A stretch of 64,000 nt of DNA, from the NCBI GenBank assembly GCA_963661535.1, contig CAVLCC010000003.1, positions 469 through 64,468 on the forward strand. Reading direction: 5' to 3'. Positions 12,627-35,083 of the stretch are shown in pieces. The DNA comes from Senegalimassilia sp. Its GTDB lineage: Bacteria > Actinomycetota > Coriobacteriia > Coriobacteriales > CADBOM01. The stretch's first letter is position 1. Each line of letters begins with the position of its first letter. Under the pieces are notes generated by a model, which saw only the letters and a list, made by a program, of their open reading frames with translations, searched no databases and had not been told where the DNA came from. The position numbers and the translations under genes were made by a program.

Positions 12627-12796
12627 TGAGCTAGGCGCATTAAGCACACTGGTCACACCAACACACTAGCACGAAAGCAAACAAGCACATCAGAAAAACT
12701 AACAGCACATCACACAAACATCTAGTTTATAAAAAACTAACGACACAGAATTTGAGACTTGAACTAAACTTAGACTAGAGTTTATAAACAAAATTC

Positions 12797-12833
12797 GGGT
12801 CGTTCTTGATTAACAAGGGCGACCCTTTAATTT
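12797..12833 (+). terminator. strong hairpin plus U-run in the thrS leader (possible attenuator)
   Basis: gggtcgttcttg (12797-12808) pairs with caagggcgaccc (12814-12825): 12 bp with two G.U. Then tttaattt, ending ~10 nt before the thrS SD (aaaggag). Confidence 0.45.
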
Positions 12834-12855
12834 GCCAAAGGAGTTGTTTTAAAAA

Positions 12856-14830: not shown

Positions 14831-16612
14831 TTACACAAGAGGCAGGCGAACAGTAAAAGTTGTTCCATCAAATATGTTGCTGTCAACTTCTATTGTTCCG
14901 CCAAAGCCTTCAACAATATTTTTTGCGATAGAAAGTCCTAGACCATACCCTTCGGTTTTGCCTGTGCGAGCTTTGTCTGAGCGATAGAACTTCTCAAAAA
15001 TATGTGGCAAATCGTGTGGAGAAATTGGCTCTCCCCCGTTATTAACGGTGAGGATGCCGTAGGATTTTTCGCGATACAAGCAAACCTTTACATAATTAGC
15101 GCGAGTTGTGAATACGGCGGGAGCAACAAGTCCATTGGGACTTGCAATAAGTGCTCCGGTTTCTTCAGGCGATGGCCGAGAAGCTTTGTCTATATTATAG
15201 TCGCCCACCCCATTCTCAGCAGAATTTGCTCCCTCACTAGCCGCATCAAAATCACCTAGCGAAGGTTTTGCTGCGTCCAAGCCAGCAACGCAAAAGCCAC
15301 CAGAGGATTCCTCCCCCAAACCAGCATTTTCTTTATCTCCAGCACTTGCTGCATACTTGCAAGCGTTATCGAGCAAAACGCGGATCACACGTTCGAGCTT
15401 ATCGGAGTCGGCTCTTACCATAAGACCCTCCTCGATTTGCTCCTCCATTTCAACACCCTTATCAAAAGCCACTGCCTCAAATTGCAGAATATCCATTTCT
15501 ACAATTGAAGAGAAGTCGAGTACCTCAAGCTGCAAATTTGCCCTAAACGTCTGAATATTATCAGGTTCTGTTTGTGCCAACACAAGCAAGTCTTTAACAA
15601 GCCCTTGCATACGCTCTGCCTCTTCGCTCGTGCTCTCAATCCATCGACGCTGCTCCTCCACAGTAGCATCGCTATGCGACAGCACAATATCGTTATTAGC
15701 CAAAATAACAGTAAGGGGAGTTTTTAGCTCATGAGATGCATCTGCAATAAAACGCTGCTGACCGTCCCAAGCTTGGCGCACAGGCTTTAGCGTAAAGCGA
15801 GACAGCCACAAACAAACCAAGAACAAAACACCGAGCGTGCCTGCCCCCACCAAAAGGGAGAAGATTATTCGACCAAATGTATCAGCATGCAGCGTTGTTG
15901 AATCTGCAAATGCAATGCGAACCTCGTTTTTGTATTCACTCACACTATAGAACAGTCCAGCGCTAGTTAGCTCGCCTGAGTTTTGGCCTATCTGTCCAAT
16001 TTCTTCAAGTGCCTGTGTTACCAAATTCGCACTCATATAAGCATTTTTGCTTGCCGCCTTTATGGTTCCATCTGCAGCAATTGACACGCAATATACAGGG
16101 ATTGAAGTATCTGAAGTAGATATATCTTTGCTTATGCCGCTTCCTATAGAAAGTCCTAAGTCTGAGCTGCCAGAATAACTTTTTTCTTCACTTTGAGGTG
16201 TAGTATTTGCATCTAAGTTTTCTGTATTGTCGTTTGTGGAAGGGTCGGATCCATTTGTGTCGACGCTGGAGCCACTACCAGAGCTACTGCTAGAGCTACC
16301 ACTTGAACCGCTGCTAGAGCCGCTACCGCCAGACGACTGCGACCCCTCCGACTGCGACGAACCACTCTTAGAAGACTTTGTGCTCGACGAACTCGAATTT
16401 GAACTTGAACTAATATCGTCATCTAATCCGCCAATTCTTGGAACATTCAAGCCAGAAGGACCTGCAATTAGAGCAGAGTTTAGCGCACTCATCGTGGAGC
16501 GATATTGACTGTTATAACTCGCAACATTAAAAATCAAAAGAACAGTAACCAACACCACAGCCAAAAGCGCCATGGTGGTGCCAACAAAAGTCCACTTAAG
16601 TTTTCTAAACAA
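14831..16612 (-). CDS. sensor histidine kinase
   Basis: Two TM segments flank a Ser-rich extracytoplasmic region. H-box FIADASHELKTPLT. N box LLDNACKY and G boxes GYGLGLSI, with a long insert between them. Confidence 0.85.
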   Translation of the reverse strand: MFRKLKWTFVGTTMALLAVVLVTVLLIFNVASYNSQYRSTMSALNSALIAGPSGLNVPRIGGLDDDISSSSNSSSSSTKSSKSGSSQSEGSQSSGGSGSSSGSSGSSSSSSGSGSSVDTNGSDPSTNDNTENLDANTTPQSEEKSYSGSSDLGLSIGSGISKDISTSDTSIPVYCVSIAADGTIKAASKNAYMSANLVTQALEEIGQIGQNSGELTSAGLFYSVSEYKNEVRIAFADSTTLHADTFGRIIFSLLVGAGTLGVLFLVCLWLSRFTLKPVRQAWDGQQRFIADASHELKTPLTVILANNDIVLSHSDATVEEQRRWIESTSEEAERMQGLVKDLLVLAQTEPDNIQTFRANLQLEVLDFSSIVEMDILQFEAVAFDKGVEMEEQIEEGLMVRADSDKLERVIRVLLDNACKYAASAGDKENAGLGEESSGGFCVAGLDAAKPSLGDFDAASEGANSAENGVGDYNIDKASRPSPEETGALIASPNGLVAPAVFTTRANYVKVCLYREKSYGILTVNNGGEPISPHDLPHIFEKFYRSDKARTGKTEGYGLGLSIAKNIVEGFGGTIEVDSNIFDGTTFTVRLPLV

Positions 16613-16707
16613 GTTAATGAGTCATCAGCCCTCTCGCGCAAAACTAGCCGAGTCAAAAACCAAAAATCCTATCAGGGCTAGCAATGCAAACCAGATATCA
16701 CAAAATA

Positions 16708-17385
16708 CTACTCGGTTTTAACTTGCATGCGATATCCAATCATGCGAAGAGTAACAATCTCAACCTTAGACTTCAAAAACTTCAGCTTTTTGCGCATAAA
16801 TGAAATATAAGCCTCTACGCTATTGTCTGCAACGTCTGCCTCAGTTCCCCAGACTTTTAGCAACATCTGCTCTTTAGAGATTGTTTGTTTGGGGTTGAGC
16901 ATAAAAAGTCTTGCAACTTCAAACTCTTTGTAGCTCAAATGCACCGACTTTTCTCCGCAACTCAAATTGCAAGTGTTTAAGTCAAGCGTGAGGTCTTCAA
17001 AAGTTGCTTCGTCAAGCACAACCTCTCCCTTACGACGTGTAAGTGCCCTTATATTAGCCAAAAGTTCCTCGGGAGAAAAAGGTTTTGTAAGATATGCATC
17101 ACCGCCGCGGTCTAAACCCGTAACTTTATCGGCAACCTGAGACATTGCAGTCAGAAAAATAACCGGTGTAGAAATGTTTGCTTGTCGGATTTCTTTTACA
17201 GCTTCAAATCCGTCTTTGCGCGGCAGCATCACGTCTAGCACAATCATGTCGTACATGTCAGAAACCGCATAATCTACAGCCGATTGCCCGTCATAAACTG
17301 CATCTACATGATATCCAGCGTCGGTTAAAATTTGCTGCAATGCCGCAGAAAGTCTCTTCTCGTCTTCTACAACCAGCACGTTCAT
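16708..17385 (-). CDS. OmpR/PhoB-family response regulator
   Basis: Receiver domain (VLVVEDE...DVMLP...KPF) plus a winged-helix output domain (LSYKEFEVARLFM...GYRM). Confidence 0.9.
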   Translation of the reverse strand: MNVLVVEDEKRLSAALQQILTDAGYHVDAVYDGQSAVDYAVSDMYDMIVLDVMLPRKDGFEAVKEIRQANISTPVIFLTAMSQVADKVTGLDRGGDAYLTKPFSPEELLANIRALTRRKGEVVLDEATFEDLTLDLNTCNLSCGEKSVHLSYKEFEVARLFMLNPKQTISKEQMLLKVWGTEADVADNSVEAYISFMRKKLKFLKSKVEIVTLRMIGYRMQVKTE

Positions 17386-17556: not shown

Positions 17557-17901
17557 CTAGCCCTTTATCACTGTTGGAATGCCTGCGACTAAGCGCACAA
17601 CTTTGCTTGCACGCTTAGCAAGCTTAACACATAGGCGACCTGTTTGTTCACGTGCATCGCGACCCGCTCGAGTAGCAGGAATTACTCCACTGCCAACTTC
17701 GTCGCAAATAACAACTTCTTTTCTAGCTAGGTCTTCTAGCAAGTTCTCAGCACTCATTGGGTCTTTGGCAACTATGTCTTGCAAGTTATAAACCACTGCC
17801 CTGTCGCCAATTTTTCCATCATCAATTTGTGAGTCGGAATAACCCAGCGACTTCACATAATCAAGCTTTCCGGAACCTGAGCCGCCAATCACTAAAATCA
17901 T
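17557..17901 (-). CDS. truncated CobU-family paralogue (mini-CobU)
   Basis: 114 aa. P-loop GGSGSGK at the N-terminus. The C-terminus (VVICDEVGSGVIP...RLVAGIPTVIKG) aligns with the full-length CobU at 18841-19386, but the central ~60 aa are absent. Its start overlaps the cobS stop (ATGA). Confidence 0.6.
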   Translation of the reverse strand: MILVIGGSGSGKLDYVKSLGYSDSQIDDGKIGDRAVVYNLQDIVAKDPMSAENLLEDLARKEVVICDEVGSGVIPATRAGRDAREQTGRLCVKLAKRASKVVRLVAGIPTVIKG

Positions 17902-18683
17902 AATCCTATAGCCTCCACAAGAGCCACAACAGCAATAAGAGCAATCTCTAAAATTTGAAGATAAAATCCCGAAAGATCCCCGCTCATTCCACCAAATTGA
18001 CGCTTTGACATAACATATAAATATAAAGAGATTATAAGCGTTACTCCAACAAAAAGCGTTGCGGCAAACCAGCCCAAAAATACATACGCATATGCTATAG
18101 CTGCTGCCAACAAAATAAACAAAATGATTAAAGCACCCTTTTTATTTGCAGACCCCCTAAAAGTGCTAAGCAGCCCTTCGGTGGAACTTCCTGGATATAA
18201 AATGCTAACAATGCCGCTCATAATGCGAACCCATACTGGAATAAGGCAAACCAACATGGTTGTGTATATCCAATCATAACCTGTGTATTTTAGCTGTGCG
18301 GCAATTGCAAAATAACAAATTAGATATGCGCTTATTCCAATTCCTGCAAATGCGCCGATGTTTGAGTCTTTTAGAATTGCACGCTTTTTTTCTTGAGAAG
18401 CGTGGCTCGAGAGCGCATCTACTGTGTCAGCAAACCCATCAATGTGGATACCCCCTGTTATAACAAGCGGAATTATCATAGTAACTAGTGCCATTATCAA
18501 GCGATCAATTTGCAAGAGAGACGCTAGAAAAAACCAAACGCCAAGCAGCAGGGCAATCACAACTCCAATTAGCGGAAAAGCCGCTAGTGTATAGCGCATA
18601 CTTCGTTCACTCCAGTCTATATAAGGCATCTTTATTGTAGAAAACATCGAAAATGCCCTAATTATTGACCTTATTAGCGTCAT
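17898..18683 (-). CDS. cobS: adenosylcobinamide-GDP ribazoletransferase (cobalamin synthase)
   Basis: 261-aa polytopic membrane protein with the CobS motif GGIHIDGFADTVDAL. Confidence 0.85.
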   Translation of the reverse strand: MTLIRSIIRAFSMFSTIKMPYIDWSERSMRYTLAAFPLIGVVIALLLGVWFFLASLLQIDRLIMALVTMIIPLVITGGIHIDGFADTVDALSSHASQEKKRAILKDSNIGAFAGIGISAYLICYFAIAAQLKYTGYDWIYTTMLVCLIPVWVRIMSGIVSILYPGSSTEGLLSTFRGSANKKGALIILFILLAAAIAYAYVFLGWFAATLFVGVTLIISLYLYVMSKRQFGGMSGDLSGFYLQILEIALIAVVALVEAIGL

Positions 18684-18840: not shown

Positions 18841-19386
18841 TTACGCGCTCTCAGCATCGTTCATAGGCGAAAGCTCACCTTTTATTACTATAGGGATTCC
18901 ACACACCAGCTCATAGACAGCATCGGCTTTTGCCGCAAGTTCTCGGTTAATATATCCAAGCGCATCAACATATTTGGGAGTAAGGTCATCATAATCATGA
19001 AACTCAGAGCCAACATCGTTGGTCACAACAATCAGATTTTTGCACTTGCCTGCTAAATCAGTTACTCCGTTGACAATCTTTTGCCTTGGATCACATACGT
19101 TGCCTTGTTCATCAAACATCTCATTGCTTGTGAGGTTGCAGATACATTCTAGCAACACTGTGGCTTCATCTGGAACTTGCACCTCGGCAATATTTGTTTG
19201 AGCCTCAATTGTGGTAAAGCCTTTTTTTGCACGCATTTTTCTGTGTCTATCAATTTTGGCTAAACTCTCTTCTCCGTATGGTTGCATAGTGGCAATGTAA
19301 ATTCGCGGGCTATGGTATTGACACACCAAAGATTCTGCATACGTGCTCTTTCCACAAGCAGAGCCCCCTGTGAGCAAATAAAACAT
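18841..19386 (-). CDS. cobU: bifunctional adenosylcobinamide kinase / adenosylcobinamide-phosphate guanylyltransferase
   Basis: 181 aa. P-loop TGGSACGKS, a His-containing loop (KIDRHRKMR), and VVTNDVGSE...GIPIVIKG. Confidence 0.85.
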   Translation of the reverse strand: MFYLLTGGSACGKSTYAESLVCQYHSPRIYIATMQPYGEESLAKIDRHRKMRAKKGFTTIEAQTNIAEVQVPDEATVLLECICNLTSNEMFDEQGNVCDPRQKIVNGVTDLAGKCKNLIVVTNDVGSEFHDYDDLTPKYVDALGYINRELAAKADAVYELVCGIPIVIKGELSPMNDAESA

Positions 19387-19521: not shown

Positions 19522-20781
19522 TTATCCCAGCGGAACATATGCATCTATTTTAATATCGTCAAACGACACCATTTCTGAATATACCGCCAATCCCATATCT
19601 AAAAGAGGCATTGCGCAAACTGCGCCTGTTCCCTCCCCCAAATGCATTCCAGCACAAATTAGGGGTTGTAAGTCTATCTCTTTTAGAATTGCTGGTGCCG
19701 CTGGCTCACTCGAAACATGACTTGCAAACATAGCGACCCGAGATAACGCACATATTCTATAAGCAACTAGGGCTGCACATGCCGAGATAAGTCCATCGAT
19801 TAAAATTGGCACTCTATAAATTGCTCCACCCAAAAATACGCCCACAAGACCGGCTATATCAAATCCGCCAAGTTTTGAAAGACAATCCAGCGGATCTTTA
19901 GTGTTTGGATGGTTGACCTCAATCCCCTTTTTGATTGCAGCAATTTTGCGCGTTAGACCGTCATCAGAAAGTCCGGCACCGCGTCCTGTGACCTCCTCCA
20001 CACTAACACCTAACAAAAGCGATGCCAACGCACTTGATGTTGTTGTGTTGCCAATGCCCATCTCACCTGTGGCTATAAGTTTATATCCCTGAGATGCCAT
20101 GTCTTTAACGATATCTATTCCTGTAGAAATAGCTTGCCACATTTGGTCGTTTGTCATTGCGGGCTCTTTTGTGAAGTTTGCAGTTTGAGAGGCAATTTGT
20201 CTATCTAGGGTGCCCTGTGCCTCAAACATCATTCCCATATTTACTGCGAGCGTGTCTGCATGTGCTAGATTTGCCATTCTGCACACCGATGTGTCGTGAT
20301 GAACGATGTTGCCCGCTACTATGGCTGTTACGTCCTGACCAGTTTGTGTGACGCCCTCCTCAACAACTCCGTTATCGGCACACATAACAACCACTGCGCG
20401 TTTGTTTAGAACCACGTCAGGCGTGCCAATGAGTCCAGCTATTCGAGTAATGTCTGTCTCTAGTGCGCCAAGACTCTCTAGTGGCTTTGCAATTGCGTCC
20501 CAATTTTTTTTGCACTTGTTTGCAGCATCATTATTAAAAGCTGCAATTTTTGCGGCAATTAGGTTTATTTTATGCTCGTTGGTGTTGTTTGAACGAAGCT
20601 CTTTGCACAATTCAGAAGGATCGTTGTTAGTTATATTAACGGTGCCTTTTGAGTTGTTTTCGCTGTCGCAGTTTGCAGGCGTAGTTACCTCGCTGCTAGC
20701 ATTTTGATTAGTTTGCTGACCTTGGTTTTTGTTTTCACTTGCGCATGCGCAACCATCAGATAAATTATTATCGTTGTTCAT
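19522..20781 (-). CDS. cobT: nicotinate-nucleotide--dimethylbenzimidazole phosphoribosyltransferase with a low-complexity N-terminal extension
   Basis: CobT blocks AKPLESLGALE, GEMGIGNTT and HLGEGTGA. About 65 aa of N/Q/S-rich extension precede the conserved core. Confidence 0.9.
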   Translation of the reverse strand: MNNDNNLSDGCACASENKNQGQQTNQNASSEVTTPANCDSENNSKGTVNITNNDPSELCKELRSNNTNEHKINLIAAKIAAFNNDAANKCKKNWDAIAKPLESLGALETDITRIAGLIGTPDVVLNKRAVVVMCADNGVVEEGVTQTGQDVTAIVAGNIVHHDTSVCRMANLAHADTLAVNMGMMFEAQGTLDRQIASQTANFTKEPAMTNDQMWQAISTGIDIVKDMASQGYKLIATGEMGIGNTTTSSALASLLLGVSVEEVTGRGAGLSDDGLTRKIAAIKKGIEVNHPNTKDPLDCLSKLGGFDIAGLVGVFLGGAIYRVPILIDGLISACAALVAYRICALSRVAMFASHVSSEPAAPAILKEIDLQPLICAGMHLGEGTGAVCAMPLLDMGLAVYSEMVSFDDIKIDAYVPLG

Positions 20782-20924
20782 AAATATTCTCTTTTCTATA
20801 TTTGTTTTTTGTTATTTGCCCGCATATTTAAAGGGCAAGTTTAAGCATTTTAAACACAAAGCTAGACACACCAAAACAATGGCAAACCATAAAATTTTAT
20901 GTTCATAAAGCTTTGAAATAAATG

Positions 20925-20968
20925 AAAAATTTTAGACGGGGCAAGAGCTTTTATATCTCTTACCCCGT
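20925..20968 (-). terminator. intrinsic terminator in the cobT leader, ~145 nt upstream of the cobT ATG
   Basis: On the minus strand ACGGGGUAAGAG pairs with CUCUUGCCCCGU (12 bp, one G.U; 20968->20936), followed by CUAAAAUUUUU. Confidence 0.7.
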
Positions 20969-21438
20969 TTTATTGATTGCGCATTACCCCGGGGGTGACA
21001 AGGGGTGGGTAGGAGGTGCGCAACCTTCTTTTGGGTCTTGTGGGAGACCCTTTGCGTTTGAATACATCGGAGTTGTCTCCGAATACTTTGGGTTATTGCT
21101 TAAAAACTTGGTCATGGGGTTTAGGATGACCATTTATAAGGCTTATGTATGTAACAGATTTTTATAATCTGCAGGTAACGGCTAACACCTAGCAAATAAT
21201 TAAGTTGAGGAGTGCTTACGCATGCTCGGTTTGCTCAATAAGATAGATAAGGTCAACGAAAGGAGTCGGATATCTCTGTTCGATATAAAGTGTTTTTTAC
21301 TACGGCAAAATAGAAAAACAACTGAGCATTTGGTATTAGTTACCGGTACCTTGAAATTTATTAAGGCAGAGACTGTGGATCCGCCTACATGGGCAATAAA
21401 AAAGGCACATCTGATATCTAAACCAGCTGTACCCGAAT

Positions 21439-21504
21439 TTATGCTCCCATGTCCGACAATGGCAATTTGTCGGCTTCAATGGCGCAATAACTCGTTACAA
21501 CCAT
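21439..21504 (-). CDS. 21-codon ORF immediately behind the riboswitch (leader peptide or remnant of a lost gene)
   Basis: AGGAGA (21516->21511), 6 nt, then AUG at 21504. Reads MVVTSYCAIEADKLPLSDMGA*. No similarity that I can judge. Confidence 0.2.
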   Translation of the reverse strand: MVVTSYCAIEADKLPLSDMGA

Positions 21505-21513
21505 TAAAACTCT

Positions 21514-21688
21514 CCTGAGCAGGTCTTCTGACTTACGAATTTGCAAGCTTTTTTCTTGCGCGAAACTTCCTCCTTCCCAGACAAAGTCCAGTGGTTATAC
21601 GGAAGTTCCTCTCCGTTCACAGCGGCGGTACCGTTTGGGACTCTCACCCAATTCTCTCTTAGCCATTTAAATAAAAATGGAACTCAGG
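21514..21688 (-). promoter_or_regulatory. cobalamin (B12) riboswitch aptamer
   Basis: The minus strand carries the core blocks in canonical order: AGAGAGAAUUGGGUGAGAGUCC, CCGCCGCUGUGA, ACCACUGG...UGGGAAGG, and the B12 box AAGUCAGAAGACCUGC (21533->21519). P1 is CCUGAG (21688->21683) paired with CUCAGG (21519->21514). Confidence 0.85.
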
Positions 21689-21921
21689 CGTATTCGATTT
21701 TCAAGGAACCGATGTTTCTTACGCTTTGTCTAGATTAAACCTAAATTTGAATTTGGTCAATATGTTTTTTAAAAATTCTTTGTGTAGTTCGTACAGTGCG
21801 CCTGCGCACGTCATTGCATTACAAATTAACCTTACAAATTTAGTGCATTTATTATGCTGTGATGTATCTAAATTTGTTTTAAGTCACTTATGATAAAAGC
21901 AAATAGCTAGATCATACATGC

Positions 21922-21958
21922 AAAAATCCCTCGCCCGTGGTGGATGAGCGAGGGATTT
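21922..21958 (-). terminator. intrinsic terminator of the giant surface-protein gene
   Basis: aaatccctcgc (21924-21934) pairs with gcgagggattt (21948-21958). On the minus strand the hairpin is followed by UUUUUG. Confidence 0.75.
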
Positions 21959-29758: not shown

Positions 29759-30811
29759 TCAAATTACGCTAATTTCTTGCAGCTGTTCTACAGCTTCAAT
29801 CAAATATCCATAAGCAATTGGATCTGCAATACGCAGATAAGAAAAACGTTTTACTTTTTCAATCCCTAAAATCCTTCCAGAATATTCTTCTGCATCATCT
29901 ATTTTTTTAACAGTTTGTTGATCTGTCAGTATAGAAGTAGCCAGATACAACACCTTACTCGCATATATACCAGCAACCTCACCGCCGAATTTCCCTCCAA
30001 GAATATGATTTCTAATTCTTAAAATTCCATCTTTGTAAAAAGGATAATCTCCCTGCGGATTTCCTCTGCTAACGATACAAAAAGCGCCTCTGATTGTATC
30101 CATCAACACATCATCTGGAATAAGCACAAGTCCTCGATAATTCATTTCTGAGCTAACAATGCGCTTATAGGATGTTTTAACTTCCGCAAAATCTGTCATT
30201 GCATCAAAAAGCGACCCGCAATCAAAGAGCTGTTTGATGATTTCCAATTCTTTGTTTACGCCAAATGGAACCCCTGTTGTATGCGGCGCAAAAGCTGTAA
30301 GCTTATCTCCAAGAATACTATTTACATTTGGAATTTTAACTTGAAGATTTTCTCCCTCTGTTAACAGGAGCTCATTATTAATTGCCTTTTCTACAATACT
30401 TGAATACTGAACCTCTTCAAAAAGCACGTCTAATAATATTGTCAGATCACGACTACTGATTGGTGATTTGTACTTGAATTTAAAGTGTCGCTTTTGAATA
30501 TTATTTTTGCCAACACGAACGTGTTCTTCAACACTGATAAACGGAAATACCTCTCCAGCTTTACGAATATACGTATCAATGTCTGTGGTAGGTTCAACAA
30601 TAATGTCAATATCCGTGCTAAGTCTTCTCGGATGATCTAACAGCAGCATAAGCGCAGTCCCTCCCTTGAAGCAAAATGGAAGTTCAACTCTTCTAATTGC
30701 TTCTAAAAGACCGAACGCATAAATAACACGCTCTAGCAATGCTGGATCGTTCCCTGTTCTTTTTTGAAGATCACGTATGTATTCCTCTGTATACATTTGT
30801 CTTGAAAGCAT
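29759..30811 (-). CDS. abiEii: nucleotidyltransferase AbiEii/AbiGii toxin family protein (type IV TA / abortive infection)
   Basis: 350 aa with the family motif FKGGTALMLLL...RLSTDIDIIV. RBS aagggga. Starts 11 nt after the upstream partner gene. Confidence 0.8.
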   Translation of the reverse strand: MLSRQMYTEEYIRDLQKRTGNDPALLERVIYAFGLLEAIRRVELPFCFKGGTALMLLLDHPRRLSTDIDIIVEPTTDIDTYIRKAGEVFPFISVEEHVRVGKNNIQKRHFKFKYKSPISSRDLTILLDVLFEEVQYSSIVEKAINNELLLTEGENLQVKIPNVNSILGDKLTAFAPHTTGVPFGVNKELEIIKQLFDCGSLFDAMTDFAEVKTSYKRIVSSEMNYRGLVLIPDDVLMDTIRGAFCIVSRGNPQGDYPFYKDGILRIRNHILGGKFGGEVAGIYASKVLYLATSILTDQQTVKKIDDAEEYSGRILGIEKVKRFSYLRIADPIAYGYLIEAVEQLQEISVI

Positions 30812-30822
30812 ATTTAATCCCC

Positions 30823-31536
30823 TTAACTTTCTTGCATATATTTTTTGACTTGTGTCGTCTTCCCCCTCCGACCTGCATATCGATTTAACCTGCGACTGTC
30901 CACTTGATAGCTATTCATAACATCTCTAAAGATAGATGAAAGCTCTGATAGACTAAATGTAGCAGCAATGCTTTTTTCGGCGATAATATCGACAAGAAGT
31001 TTTTCAACTGTTATTTCGTGTGGTAAATCTACAGAGAGGGGTGCCTGGCTAATTAAATCTAATACTACAATACAGTTTTTTATCCAATAACGATTGAACT
31101 CTTCTTTGCTAGGCTTATATAGCACACCTCCATTGTACTCTTCTTGTAGGATATCAAAAACATAAGAGCTTAAATCTTTCTCTACTTGAACATATATGGT
31201 GTTCTGAGCAATCTGGTGATTAAGAAACTCATTTAGAAGCACACTTTCAAATGTTACAAAATCTAGTTTAGGCAAACGCTTTTTAAGGAGGTTCATTACC
31301 TCGCGTGCATGCTTGGAATATATTGGTTTATAAGCAGGGAGAGTCTTGATTTTTTTGATGGAGTACTCGTTGTAGCCTGTCTTATAGATTCTCTCTTTTT
31401 GCTGCATATTGTATAGTGTCCATCGAAACGCGCTATCTGTTAGATCAGGCTTTACTTGAAAGAATGCTTGAAAAAGATCATTTCTATGGTATTTGTTTTT
31501 ATCTGAAAGTTTTAATAAAGCTTGGTCTGTCCACAT
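30823..31536 (-). CDS. abiEi: AbiEi-like antitoxin / winged-helix transcriptional regulator partner of AbiEii
   Basis: The position immediately upstream of abiEii, the size (~237 aa) and an N-terminal wHTH-like region support the call. AGGAG (31550->31546) directly abuts the track ATG at 31545, so the ATG at 31536 (9-nt spacing) is more likely. Confidence 0.6.
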   Translation of the reverse strand: MWTDQALLKLSDKNKYHRNDLFQAFFQVKPDLTDSAFRWTLYNMQQKERIYKTGYNEYSIKKIKTLPAYKPIYSKHAREVMNLLKKRLPKLDFVTFESVLLNEFLNHQIAQNTIYVQVEKDLSSYVFDILQEEYNGGVLYKPSKEEFNRYWIKNCIVVLDLISQAPLSVDLPHEITVEKLLVDIIAEKSIAATFSLSELSSIFRDVMNSYQVDSRRLNRYAGRRGKTTQVKKYMQES

Positions 31537-31560
31537 TCGATTCATCTCCTATAGCGTTGC

Positions 31561-33563: not shown

Positions 33564-35083
33564 TGTTTTGAGCTCCTACCCACGGGTCGAAGTGAAGCCA
33601 CAAGTGCTGCTATTGTTGCCAAAACAGACAAAAATTCTAGACGACCAAGCCACATTTGTATAAAGTAGGTGATCTTTAGTGCTAATGGAGCGGTATATGA
33701 CGCTATGCCCATCGTTAACCCGTTATTTGAAGTTGCAGATATAGATTCAAATAGAGCTTGATCTCCACGATATCCACATGCAACTCCCACAAACATGCCT
33801 ACAATAAACGAAGCAATATATAAGACTAAAATTACCGCAGCCACACGCACAGCACTTTGTTCAAGCGTTTTTTTGCCAAGATTTTCGTAGGTTGTTACCA
33901 TCTTGGTAGAATCTGGGGAGAGCACCTGCTTAATCTGCATAACCAAATCTTTTGCAAGCACGCCTAACCTAATGACCTTCATACCACCTGCCATCGACTC
34001 CGACATTCCCCCTACAGCCATAGCGCAAGCAAGCATCATAAAAGCACCCATAGAAACAAGGTTTCCAAGTTGTGCAGATGTAAGAGCAGAAAAACCACAA
34101 CTCGTAGAAGCCGAAACTAATGTAAAGACCCCCTTTCGCAAAAGAGTGTCTAGATCTATAAAATGGTTTCCCACGAGAAGCATAGTTATAAATCCAGCCA
34201 AAATAGCCAAGGTCCACACAGCATAAACCCTTAGCTCGTAGTTTTTAAAGAAGTCTAACAAGCGTCCCTTAAATGCTCTAATAAAGAGCGCCAAACTAAT
34301 TGAGCCAATGAGCATAACCACTATAAGCAATATCTCAAAAACCCAACTGTGATAATAAGTCACCCCTACGGAATTAACTGTAAATCCGCCGGTAACATAA
34401 GCTGCAATCATAGTTCCAATTCCATGAAACATTGCCATTTTTGGTGAAAAGCCTTTTATGACCAAGATGATTGCAGCAATTATTCCTCCAATTAAAACAA
34501 CAGCAATAGAAAACCCGCCAATAAATCTAACTGTCTGCTTAATTTCTGGCATTACATGGTCGTGGCGACCCTCTGCATAATATAGAGATGCCCTGCTGCC
34601 ACTGCGCACAAATGCACCTATAGAAAGTGCGACCACAACAATTCCCTGGCCGCCTATAAACATGAGAATAAATCTCCACATAATATCTGATAGGGACATA
34701 TGTTCTATGTCTACACACATCGAAAATCCTGTTGTTGTAAAGCTAGACATTCCTTCAAAAACGCTGTCGAAATATGTTGCATAATGTCCAGAAAGATAAA
34801 GCGGTATTGCAGCGAAGAGCGAACATACGAGCCATGCGATTGAGGTGATAACCACTGCTTGGCGACGCTTGAGGTTTGCAATGTTAATTTTTAGCATACA
34901 CATCAAAAAGCCCGCCGAAAATGAGGCACCAATTCCGATAATGTAGTTAACTGCAATTACAGTATTGTTTTGTGCCAAAGCAATTCCTAGAGGGATTAAC
35001 ATGGCAACACCGGTAAAGACTACAAGATAACCCAGATAATGAAATATTATTCGGAAGTCTTCTGCTTTTAATCTAGGCCACAT
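33560..35083 (-). CDS. trkH: TrkH/KtrB-family potassium uptake membrane protein
   Basis: 507-aa polytopic protein with repeated pore-loop signatures (TTTGFS, GGQG, TGGFT, NNGLT). Confidence 0.85.
   Translation of the reverse strand: MWPRLKAEDFRIIFHYLGYLVVFTGVAMLIPLGIALAQNNTVIAVNYIIGIGASFSAGFLMCMLKINIANLKRRQAVVITSIAWLVCSLFAAIPLYLSGHYATYFDSVFEGMSSFTTTGFSMCVDIEHMSLSDIMWRFILMFIGGQGIVVVALSIGAFVRSGSRASLYYAEGRHDHVMPEIKQTVRFIGGFSIAVVLIGGIIAAIILVIKGFSPKMAMFHGIGTMIAAYVTGGFTVNSVGVTYYHSWVFEILLIVVMLIGSISLALFIRAFKGRLLDFFKNYELRVYAVWTLAILAGFITMLLVGNHFIDLDTLLRKGVFTLVSASTSCGFSALTSAQLGNLVSMGAFMMLACAMAVGGMSESMAGGMKVIRLGVLAKDLVMQIKQVLSPDSTKMVTTYENLGKKTLEQSAVRVAAVILVLYIASFIVGMFVGVACGYRGDQALFESISATSNNGLTMGIASYTAPLALKITYFIQMWLGRLEFLSVLATIAALVASLRPVGRSSKQ

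Follow-up and report, generated by a model that had tools for sequence, protein, structure and literature searches.

The 64,000-nucleotide stretch analysed here (the window) belongs to contig CAVLCC010000003.1 of Senegalimassilia sp. and carries on its minus strand a cobalamin riboswitch and the operon cobT-cobU-cobS (cobTUS). The 720-nt gap between the aptamer and the cobT AUG holds no minus-strand open reading frame (ORF) of 60 aa or more, nor does the interval that extends to the upstream gene, as the first-pass annotation of this DNA had observed. We found that the gap encodes a structured RNA lying between two intrinsic terminators, T1 and T2. Ten other loci repeat the order promoter, aptamer, T1, structured RNA, T2, unconserved spacer and cobT-cobU-cobS. 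The feature is real, its conservation is strong and the structured RNA is most likely functional; we conclude that this RNA probably represents a new regulatory RNA connected with B12 metabolism in the uncultured Coriobacteriia that are its hosts. The coordinates are collected in Table 1.

Table 1. Elements of the cobTUS leader and operon, in window coordinates
Feature	Position	Strand	Remarks
Promoter-like element TTGACC-17 nt-TAATCT	21732-21760	-	About 30 nt upstream of the aptamer match
Corrinoid riboswitch aptamer	21501-21702	-	Full-length RF00174 model match; P1 3' strand ends at about 21514
Aptamer L5 region ACGGUACCGCC	21634-21624	-	
Leader hairpin LH (UUUUAAUGGUUGUAAC...GUUAUUGCGCCAUUGAAG)	21474-21509	-	P13-like platform hairpin; AUG 21504 in its 5' strand
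Hairpin H1 (CCGACAA/UUGUCGG)	21453-21473	-	100% paired; 3/6 pairs compensatory
Helix Pa	21387-21452	-	ACAUGGG (21452-21446) pairs with CCCAUGU (21393-21387); T1 clamped inside
Intrinsic terminator T1	21398-21434	-	Stem GGGUACAGCUG/CAGAUGUGCC at 21434-21404; U6 at 21403-21398; about 80 nt past the aptamer
Hairpin HP2, conserved loop AUCCACAGUC	21364-21386	-	91% paired; 2/5 pairs compensatory
Central domain	21155-21355	-	Closed by the long-range helix; hairpins C2 (21282-21257), C3 (21230-21187), C4 (21171-21155)
Long-range helix strands UUCAAGGUACCGGU and AGCCGUUACCUG	21355-21342 and 21183-21172	-	RNAalifold, six closest loci
Candidate long-range pairing of UUCAAGGUACCGG with CCGUUACCU	21355-21343 with 21181-21173	-	
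3' domain	20972-21136	-	About 160 nt; D1, J1, D2, D2b, D3, P-C
D1	21131-21110	-	Hairpin, loop AAACCCC; absent in L026
Junction J1 AAGCAAUAACCC	21101-21090	-	
D2	21082-21067	-	Hairpin
D2b	21066-21053	-	
D3	21050-21033	-	Hairpin
Stem P-C	21025-20975	-	With inner hairpin; encloses CACCUCCU
P-C internal loop CACCUCCUACCCACCCC	21018-21002	-	Conserved; 5' side is CACCUCCUACCC(A)CCC
Terminator T2	20925-20968	-	12-bp stem ACGGGGUAAGAG/CUCUUGCCCCGU (hairpin 20936-20968); tail CUAAAAUUUUU
AT-rich unconserved spacer (27% GC)	20782-20924	-	28-58% identity to relatives, the level of unrelated sequence
cobT	19522-20781	-	Pfam DBI_PRT, 1.7e-113
cobU	18841-19386	-	Pfam CobU, 1.5e-35
cobS	17898-18683	-	Pfam CobS, 2.7e-42
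114-aa CobU-fragment ORF	17557-17901	-	CobU C-terminal fragment, 1.5e-11; C-terminal third only (PF02283 positions 107-167)

The Rfam family RF00174 (cobalamin riboswitch) matched the window with 101.1 bits (gathering score 31.5; E = 3.9e-24; model positions 1-189), which was the sole gathering-level Rfam match in the 64 kb. The riboswitch call of the first-pass annotation, made from core blocks including the B12 box, is thereby borne out, and the match fell where it had been predicted. Across 11 loci the B12 box AAGUCAGAAGACCUGC and the P1 strands GCCUGAG/CUCAGG(C) do not vary, except for one U-to-C change in the B12 box of L029. RF00174 also matched upstream of cobT in L001, L005, L006, L009/L010, L011, L015, L017, L025 and L026 (89-109 bits); L029 lay outside the Rfam scan and is counted as a carrier by its nhmmer match and its matches to both covariance models described below. 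Conservation starts at the promoter-like element. Its -35/-10 pair is kept in the comparison with L001, and 6 other loci carry TTGAC(N)-16/18-TAnnnT in the corresponding place, about 57 nt before the aptamer. The riboswitch is in itself an ordinary one, and cobT is a known target of corrinoid riboswitches in other bacteria (PMC9600662); the novelty is the large structured RNA downstream of it.

Related loci (given L numbers here) were collected by CobT searches of GTDB species genomes and of a large protein collection, together with contig look-ups for the closest homologues. Carriers are the window, L001, L005, L006, L009/L010, L011, L015, L025, L026 and L029, and L017 has a miniature form; L001 was the only carrier found in the genome-contig scan of GTDB species genomes with CobT. 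When the window spacer was used as the query, BLASTN and nhmmer gave a full riboswitch-to-terminator match in L005, L006, L001, L015, L029, L009 and L011. In three distant CobT loci (L012, L027 and L028) riboswitch and spacer RNA are both missing, and cobT lies inside other operons. The order cobT-cobU-cobS is constant wherever the contig is long enough, and the upstream neighbours vary by locus (a giant CWB2 protein, proS, a metallophosphoesterase, a glycyl-radical enzyme, URO-D). Since the upstream genes differ, the conserved unit consists of riboswitch, RNA and cobTUS. One related contig belongs to a rumen series of metagenome-assembled genomes. The ThrRS encoded in the window shares 80% identity with its counterpart in Ellagibacter isourolithinifaciens, and one CobT homologue carries the label Coriobacteriales, both of which place the hosts among uncultured Coriobacteriia.

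Identity of the window to L006, L001 and L015, respectively, was 83, 82.5 and 78% in the aptamer, 75, 72.5 and 67% in the post-aptamer RNA up to the T2 tail, and 72, 70 and 64% in the cobT coding sequence. In the 150 nt upstream of the promoter it was 51, 48 and 52.5%, and in the spacer between T2 and cobT 28, 48 and 33%. Conservation of the structured RNA equals that of the cobT coding sequence, and the flanks of the RNA do not rise above random level. GC content of the host contigs lies between 41 and 64.5%, and the AU-rich blocks AAGCAAUAACCC, GUAUUCGGAG and AUUCAAACGCAA are nonetheless kept. The RNA occurs only directly upstream of cobT, on the same strand and in one copy per locus; neither the window nor any other locus holds a second copy. 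Two pattern scans of viral contigs for further homologues gave no match, and a metagenome scan with GTATTCGGAGAYNNCTCCGRTG returned seven loci, none with wider similarity to the RNA profile. In L018, the only one of these seven that was inspected, the GTATTCGGAGAYNNCTCCGRTG match lies inside a 636-aa ORF.

At E ≤ 10, Rfam 15 returned nothing but the riboswitch from the window region and seven related loci. This result excludes a second aptamer of the cobalamin clan (CL00101), a T-box, ANTAR, 6C, OLE, GOLLD, HEARO, ROOL and raiA RNAs, ribozymes (self-cleaving ones among them) and group I/II introns. A recognised aptamer class as the second domain was rejected on the same grounds. ARAGORN detected no tRNA-like gene, and a description of such an RNA was not found in full-text searches of the literature.

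The evidence for a conserved fold came from several kinds of alignment and from single sequences. RNAalifold on plain MAFFT alignments, which are not fitted to any structure, returned the same helix set with many compensatory changes. In the 3' domain (9 loci), 89% of the alignment cells were paired compared with 37-49% when the pairing partners were slid, and 16 pairs showed two-sided changes compared with 4-7; none of 500 shuffles reached the covariation score. The 5' domain (8 loci) behaved likewise, with 93.5% of cells paired (39-48% slid), 10 two-sided pairs (2-4 slid) and again 0/500 shuffles reaching the score. The six closest sequences also served to build covariance models of the 5' domain (R1) and the 3' domain (R2), with which the distant sequences were then aligned; such alignments lean to the model structure. 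R1 matched 11 loci with 36-209 bits, and 95.8% of the cells were paired, 15/41 pairs being compensatory compared with 1-3 after sliding. For R2 the values were 11 loci, 36-185 bits, 94.9% of cells paired and 20/35 compensatory pairs (2-9 slid; 8.3 ± 1.9 shuffled), and the model had no other match in 173 kb. Eleven helices are 95-96% paired over 10-11 loci, with 35/76 base pairs compensatory; the twelfth is T2, counted in the MAFFT alignment. Further helices appear in the six closest loci.

Minimum free energy (MFE) folds of single sequences gave H1, Pa, T1, HP2, D2, D3, P-C with its inner hairpin, and T2 in 10/10 main loci, and D1 wherever it is present. The 605-nt window RNA folds at -177 kcal/mol, compared with -132.6 ± 5.4 for shuffled sequences (z = -8.2). 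The hairpins listed in the first-pass annotation are all present and correspond to D1 (21110-21131), D2 (21067-21082), D3 (21033-21050), P-C (20975-21025) and T2 (20936-20968); single-sequence folding recovers them in 10/10 relatives with the 3' domain (D1 is absent in L026), and the comparison of relatives that had been suggested as a check found the region conserved, with covariation, in 10 other loci.

Immediately after the aptamer, the P1 3' strand CUCAGG runs into AGGAGAG and an AUG at 21504, which opens a 21-codon ORF (21504-21439, minus strand). These elements had been read as the classic layout for sequestering a Shine-Dalgarno (SD) sequence; all are present, and the AUG does lie in a near-invariant hairpin after P1. 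That description was incomplete, however, as it overlooked T1 about 80 nt downstream and an ORF that evolves like RNA. The leader hairpin LH (14 pairs) is 98% paired across 11 loci and shows zero compensatory changes, because its sequence is invariant. The leader ORF is kept as an ORF in all loci, with 18-73 codons, and most of its substitutions are non-synonymous; the nucleotide sequence of its first 11 codons is conserved owing to the hairpin formed there. Judged by this pattern, the 21-codon ORF evolves as RNA and unlike a peptide.

T1 is present in 11/11 loci. In the 10 in which it was correctly parsed, ΔG was -10 to -24 kcal/mol and 6-7 of the next 8 nt were U; in L009 it is visible in the single-sequence fold. 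Six of its 10 pairs are compensatory. An independent terminator scanner called T1 terminator-like in L011; the same scanner misses T1 and T2 of the window, which have loops of more than 8 nt (the T1 loop measures 10 nt, and the stem has one mismatch). T1, rather than SD sequestration alone, is likely to be the expression platform of the riboswitch, and the gate is most likely T1, possibly coupled to translation of the leader ORF. The stop codon of this ORF stands 5 nt before T1 in 7/11 loci and inside the T1 loop in 2 more. A ribosome admitted without B12 could conceivably block T1, an idea that is weak because L015, L011 and L017 deviate from the stop-codon pattern. The terminator is incorporated within helix Pa, which itself covaries (4/6 pairs compensatory; 91% of cells paired). 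A promoter-like motif, TTGCCA-16/18-CATAAT/TAAATT (at most 10/12 matches), falls within H1/Pa in the window (21436-21465, minus strand), L006 (2046-2073) and L001 (3136-3163); kept only in the closer loci, it is probably a by-product of the conserved RNA motifs.

Palindromes of the GGUACC type occur at three minus-strand sites: in aptamer loop L5 (21634-21624), at the 5' base of T1 (21429-21435) and in a strand of the long-range helix (21343-21354). They are invariant in 11/11 loci and mutually complementary, and the L5 copy departs from the family consensus. These motifs may be kissing partners. Covariation is uninformative on the partner of L5, since L5 and all candidate partners are invariant.

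Past T1, the core UCCACAGU of the HP2 loop is invariant in the 10 main loci. The predicted long-range pairing that closes the central domain is consistent yet unproven, as both of its strands are invariant. In L025 and L026 about 200 nt in the middle of the profile have no nhmmer match and both ends match, and L017 is far shorter; the central domain is accordingly variable and at least partly dispensable. Within the 3' domain, the anti-SD-like sequence CACCUCCU forms the invariant 5' side of the internal loop in the 10 loci with a full 3' domain. The motif had been noted in the first-pass annotation and is real; no specific target for it was found. The C-rich motifs of this region (D1 loop AAACCCC, junction AAUAACCC and internal loop CACCUCCUACCC) were unpaired in every single-sequence fold.

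T2 had been described as a 12-bp hairpin followed by a U-run. The hairpin stands, with 6/9 pairs compensatory in the MAFFT alignment; the U-run is interrupted in the window (CUAAAAUUUUU) and clean in most relatives. The independent scanner called T2 terminator-like in L009 (14 bp + T5) and L006. Conservation collapses right after T2. The cobT AUG (20781) lies 143 nt past the T2 tail, and among the loci the distance from T2 to cobT ranges between about 80 and 590 nt. Purines make up 83% of the T2 5' strand in 10/10 loci, compared with 62% for T1, and this T2 strand is able to pair with the conserved C-rich elements. In folds of the nascent RNA the T2 5' strand pairs with the AACCC region of J1 in at least 4/10 loci (window, L006, L029 and L025), and the pairing is weaker or less clear in L015 and L009.

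We propose, with a probability of about 0.4, that this RNA is a cis-acting leader with two gates, in which T1 responds to B12 and T2 is under the control of the new domain. A single transcription unit would start at the promoter (21760-21732) and run through the corrinoid aptamer into the leader of cobT-cobU-cobS. The first gate would be T1, preceded by the near-invariant hairpin that buries the AUG of the leader ORF. Following standard riboswitch logic, bound corrinoid would stop transcription at T1 and leave a transcript of about 320 nt; stalling of a ribosome at the stop codon of the leader ORF, 5 nt before T1, may contribute. Without corrinoid, the polymerase would make the conserved RNA of about 480 nt, comprising Pa, HP2, the central domain and the 3' domain. 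With its four hairpins and a stem, the 160-nt 3' domain would then display the invariant internal loop CACCUCCUACCC. T2, directly past this domain, would be the second gate, and the new domain would act as a second sensor (of a small molecule, a protein or an RNA) that sets read-through of T2 into cobTUS. The nucleotide-loop genes would thus be made only if complete corrinoid is low and a second condition is met. That the RNA past T1 represents a new class of large sensor RNA, with the lower-ligand base, alpha-ribazole, cobinamide or a protein as the second input to T2, and that this two-input gate is perhaps linked to the aptamer via GGUACC, is a tentative extension that we regard as rather unlikely.

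The sequence data fit action in cis and in trans alike and do not separate the two, and both of the corresponding proposals in the first-pass annotation, a B12-gated noncoding RNA and a second sensor using the last terminator, survive. For a cis-acting leader speaks the constant position of the RNA directly upstream of cobT on the same strand, with a conserved promoter before the aptamer and no sigma-70-like one after T2. A domain of about 160 nt with covarying stems, conserved junctions and loops and a terminator directly after it is also the usual layout of an aptamer with its expression platform. Several points weigh against two gates in cis. No RNA-only antiterminator of T1 was found within the platform, and one of T2 was not demonstrated, the complementarity of the C-rich loops being no better than that of shuffled T2 strands and explained by base composition. 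In most loci T2 resembles a strong ordinary terminator, and the 80-590 nt that come after it are unconstrained, which is what one would expect where an independent RNA gene ends. The search for a sigma-70-type promoter between T2 and cobT, which gave no match in 11 loci, is weak evidence for Actinobacteria; promoters in this phylum often lack a -35 element, so a promoter past T2 is possible, and L025 has TGATACAAT about 45 nt before cobT and L001 a ATATATATA box, both possible -10 boxes. We know of no riboswitch aptamer as large as the domain of about 480 nt. In L017, moreover, the terminator hairpin carries the C-rich motif in its apical loop, a placement that suits an exposed binding site better than an antiterminator strand. 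Most of these points favour a B12-gated RNA acting in trans, which we consider nearly as likely as the cis-acting leader, if on balance doubtful: corrinoid scarcity would permit read-through of T1 and a transcript of about 0.8 kb from promoter to T2, whose C-rich elements AAACCCC, AAUAACCC and CACCUCCUACCC (the last copying the 16S anti-SD) would attach to mRNAs at G-rich or SD regions, or else to a protein, and cobTUS would depend on its own promoter or on leakage through T2. Such an RNA would account for a canonical T2 with a covarying stem at which conservation exactly ends, for a size and complexity beyond the needs of known attenuators, and for C-rich motifs that stay unpaired; riboswitch-gated small RNAs (sRNAs) such as EutX, Rli55 and AspocR are known. 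The actinobacterial sRNA 6C uses C-rich loops as its seed regions (PMC6486639). Against action in trans, the occurrence of the RNA in single copy, only upstream of cobT and on the same strand is the signature of a cis element, no promoter is conserved between T2 and cobT, and no specific target emerged. The ribosome-binding region of cobT is not complementary (-3.4 kcal/mol), and the complement of the loop occurs in the 64-kb window only at 33570-33584, with 3 mismatches, where 0.6 sites are expected by chance.

A structured leader that senses nothing is improbable. The riboswitch with T1 would then be the sole input, and the downstream RNA would serve mRNA stabilisation, processing, a polymerase pause or roadblock, or fail-safe termination at a second terminator; in a variant covered by the same low estimate, the same aptamer would get a second chance through complementarity of GGUACC in L5 with GGUACC in the long-range helix strand. 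The invariance of the GGUACC-type motifs in L5, the T1 base and 21354-21343 in all loci, the building of T1 into the final fold by Pa, and the failure to detect a second known aptamer are in line with this explanation. However, about 160 nt of junction and loop sequence conserved across genomes of 41-64.5% GC exceed what is usual for a passive spacer or stabiliser, and the invariance of the motifs puts the kissing idea beyond the reach of covariation. That a decayed gene, one or more small protein-coding genes or a mobile-element remnant lies between riboswitch and cobT is effectively refuted, and with it the proposal of the first-pass annotation that the spacer is a relic of a deleted gene. 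ORFs of 47-98 aa do exist on both strands in the window, and the 21-codon ORF after the aptamer remains an ORF in all loci. However, none of the frames stays open throughout the loci, each having 2-18 stops; the longest ORFs vary by locus, and the small spacer ORFs on either strand have no Pfam match. The spacer is conserved like cobT, in blocks of 15-40 nt without third-position changes, and its stems vary by abundant compensatory pairs. Single copy number, constant place, and the absence of matches in the viral or metagenome scans and to tRNA, intron or ribozyme families count against this explanation too.

The proposed two-gate leader and its trans-acting alternative each have a known counterpart. 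EutX of Enterococcus faecalis and Rli55 of Listeria monocytogenes likewise combine a 5' cobalamin aptamer, a terminator gating a noncoding domain, an end terminator of their own, no ORF and a location at B12 genes. Here, too, a terminator whose ligand dependence we infer lies between aptamer and candidate effector domain (T1, 11 loci), and the noncoding transcript would end at its own terminator, T2. In EutX/Rli55, an ANTAR-binding dual hairpin serves as the effector and sequesters the response regulator EutV. In contrast, the present RNA has no ANTAR-like element, has a domain of about 480 nt with more than 12 helices, precedes cobTUS rather than eut genes, belongs to Coriobacteriia and lies by a DNA-binding regulator of OmpR type. 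An ANTAR effector was rejected as an identity: at E ≤ 10 there was no Rfam match in 8 loci, the hairpin loops are ACAA, CCCACA and AAACCCC, and the neighbouring regulator is of the Trans_reg_C and not the ANTAR type. Tandem riboswitch or attenuator leaders, such as that of Bacillus clausii metE with its S-adenosylmethionine and adenosylcobalamin aptamers, share two serial domains, each with a terminator, in front of one operon, with two-input logic. In all our loci T1 and T2 stand in series on the same strand with cobTUS downstream. Both aptamers of the known tandem leaders come from characterised classes, whereas the second domain here has no family match, is a putative sensor only and has no demonstrated antiterminator.

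In size (about 0.5-0.8 kb), many covarying helices, invariant loops and junctions and narrow phylogenetic range, the RNA resembles OLE, GOLLD, HEARO, ROOL and raiA. Those are free-standing genes, and there is no Rfam 15 match to them here; the present RNA is fused to a riboswitch and always stands before cobT. To our knowledge, bacteria have few conserved RNAs of half a kilobase in which many helices covary, and every one discovered to date has opened new work. In this case the riboswitch expected to gate its synthesis and its place before the genes for lower-ligand attachment give an unusually clear handle on the RNA. A second sensor would amount to a new riboswitch-like class and would suggest that cobamide salvage by Coriobacteriia of the gut and rumen involves a signal so far unrecognised. 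An RNA acting in trans would carry the EutX/Rli55 principle, in which a riboswitch decides on the existence of a regulatory RNA, into another phylum and another pathway, with an effector RNA of far greater size. On either reading, the RNA of about 0.8 kb is open to experiment, its helices being defined and its invariant loops available for mutation.

The unpaired C-runs in hairpin and internal loops, in a Gram-positive host, recall 6C (RF01066) and the C-rich sRNAs of RoxS/RsaE type of Firmicutes. Binding of mRNAs by 6C takes place through C-rich loops (PMC6486639). 6C differs in its length of about 60-90 nt, its two hairpins and the lack of an attached riboswitch, and no targets were found here; RF01066 had no match at E ≤ 10, and the likeness is a mere general resemblance in unpaired C-rich motifs. 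A duplex search over 37 start regions in the window returned an 11-nt match at the end of trkH. At this site (33570-33584, minus strand), which lies at the trkH 3' end within the SD region of the following ORF, GUGGGUAGGAG is perfectly complementary over 11 nt to the invariant loop CUCCUACCCAC. It was rejected as a trans target, as the mismatch search found 1 site compared with 0.6 expected, which is chance level.

The miniature element of L017 (2541-2860) measures about 300 nt and retains the leader hairpin, T1, a UCCACA motif, UCAAGGUGCC and a GUAUUCGAAG hairpin. Its terminator loop holds GUACCCCACC, and UCAAGGUG could pair with the 3' strand CACCUUUG of the terminator. Placing a C-rich element inside a terminator hairpin recalls the hydroxymethylpyrimidine pyrophosphate (HMP-PP, thiS) riboswitch, in which the aptamer is embedded in the terminator (PMC6478431); this is an architectural likeness only, in one divergent locus, with no sequence relationship. 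Between T2 and cobT, L029 has a 590-nt spacer (1225-1811) of GC-rich tandem repeats (GCCCAYGAGGGTGCCTTG..., GACGGCTAGCGCC...), and the spacer of L009 (2885-3000) contains a strong SD followed by the mini-ORF AUG-AAA-UAA. A weak R1 match in the window (12787-12834, plus strand; 18.6 bits) involves only the T1 part of the model and represents a terminator-like hairpin, without an Rfam family, just upstream of thrS (12856).

Upstream of the riboswitch unit, a terminator hairpin (CCCUCGC...GCGAGGG followed by U5; 21922-21955, minus strand) ends the gene of a 2497-aa CWB2-domain protein and separates the two. In the operon, the low-complexity N-terminal extension of CobT (about 80 aa, rich in N, D, S, C and K; 20542-20781, minus strand) is common only to L005, L006 and L001; other CobT homologues have 352-358 aa. 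The 114-aa CobU-fragment ORF follows cobS wherever the contig reaches, and in L012 its equivalent is fused to a His_Phos_1 (CobC-like) phosphatase. Downstream of the cob operon lie an OmpR-type response regulator (Trans_reg_C) and a HisKA kinase (14831-17385, minus strand). This pair, or at least the regulator, is present in most loci that carry the RNA and absent in L012 and L028, which lack it. Next to the giant surface-protein gene, an AbiEii nucleotidyltransferase toxin gene and an adjacent DUF6577 gene (29759-31545, minus strand) look like a type IV toxin-antitoxin or abortive-infection module.

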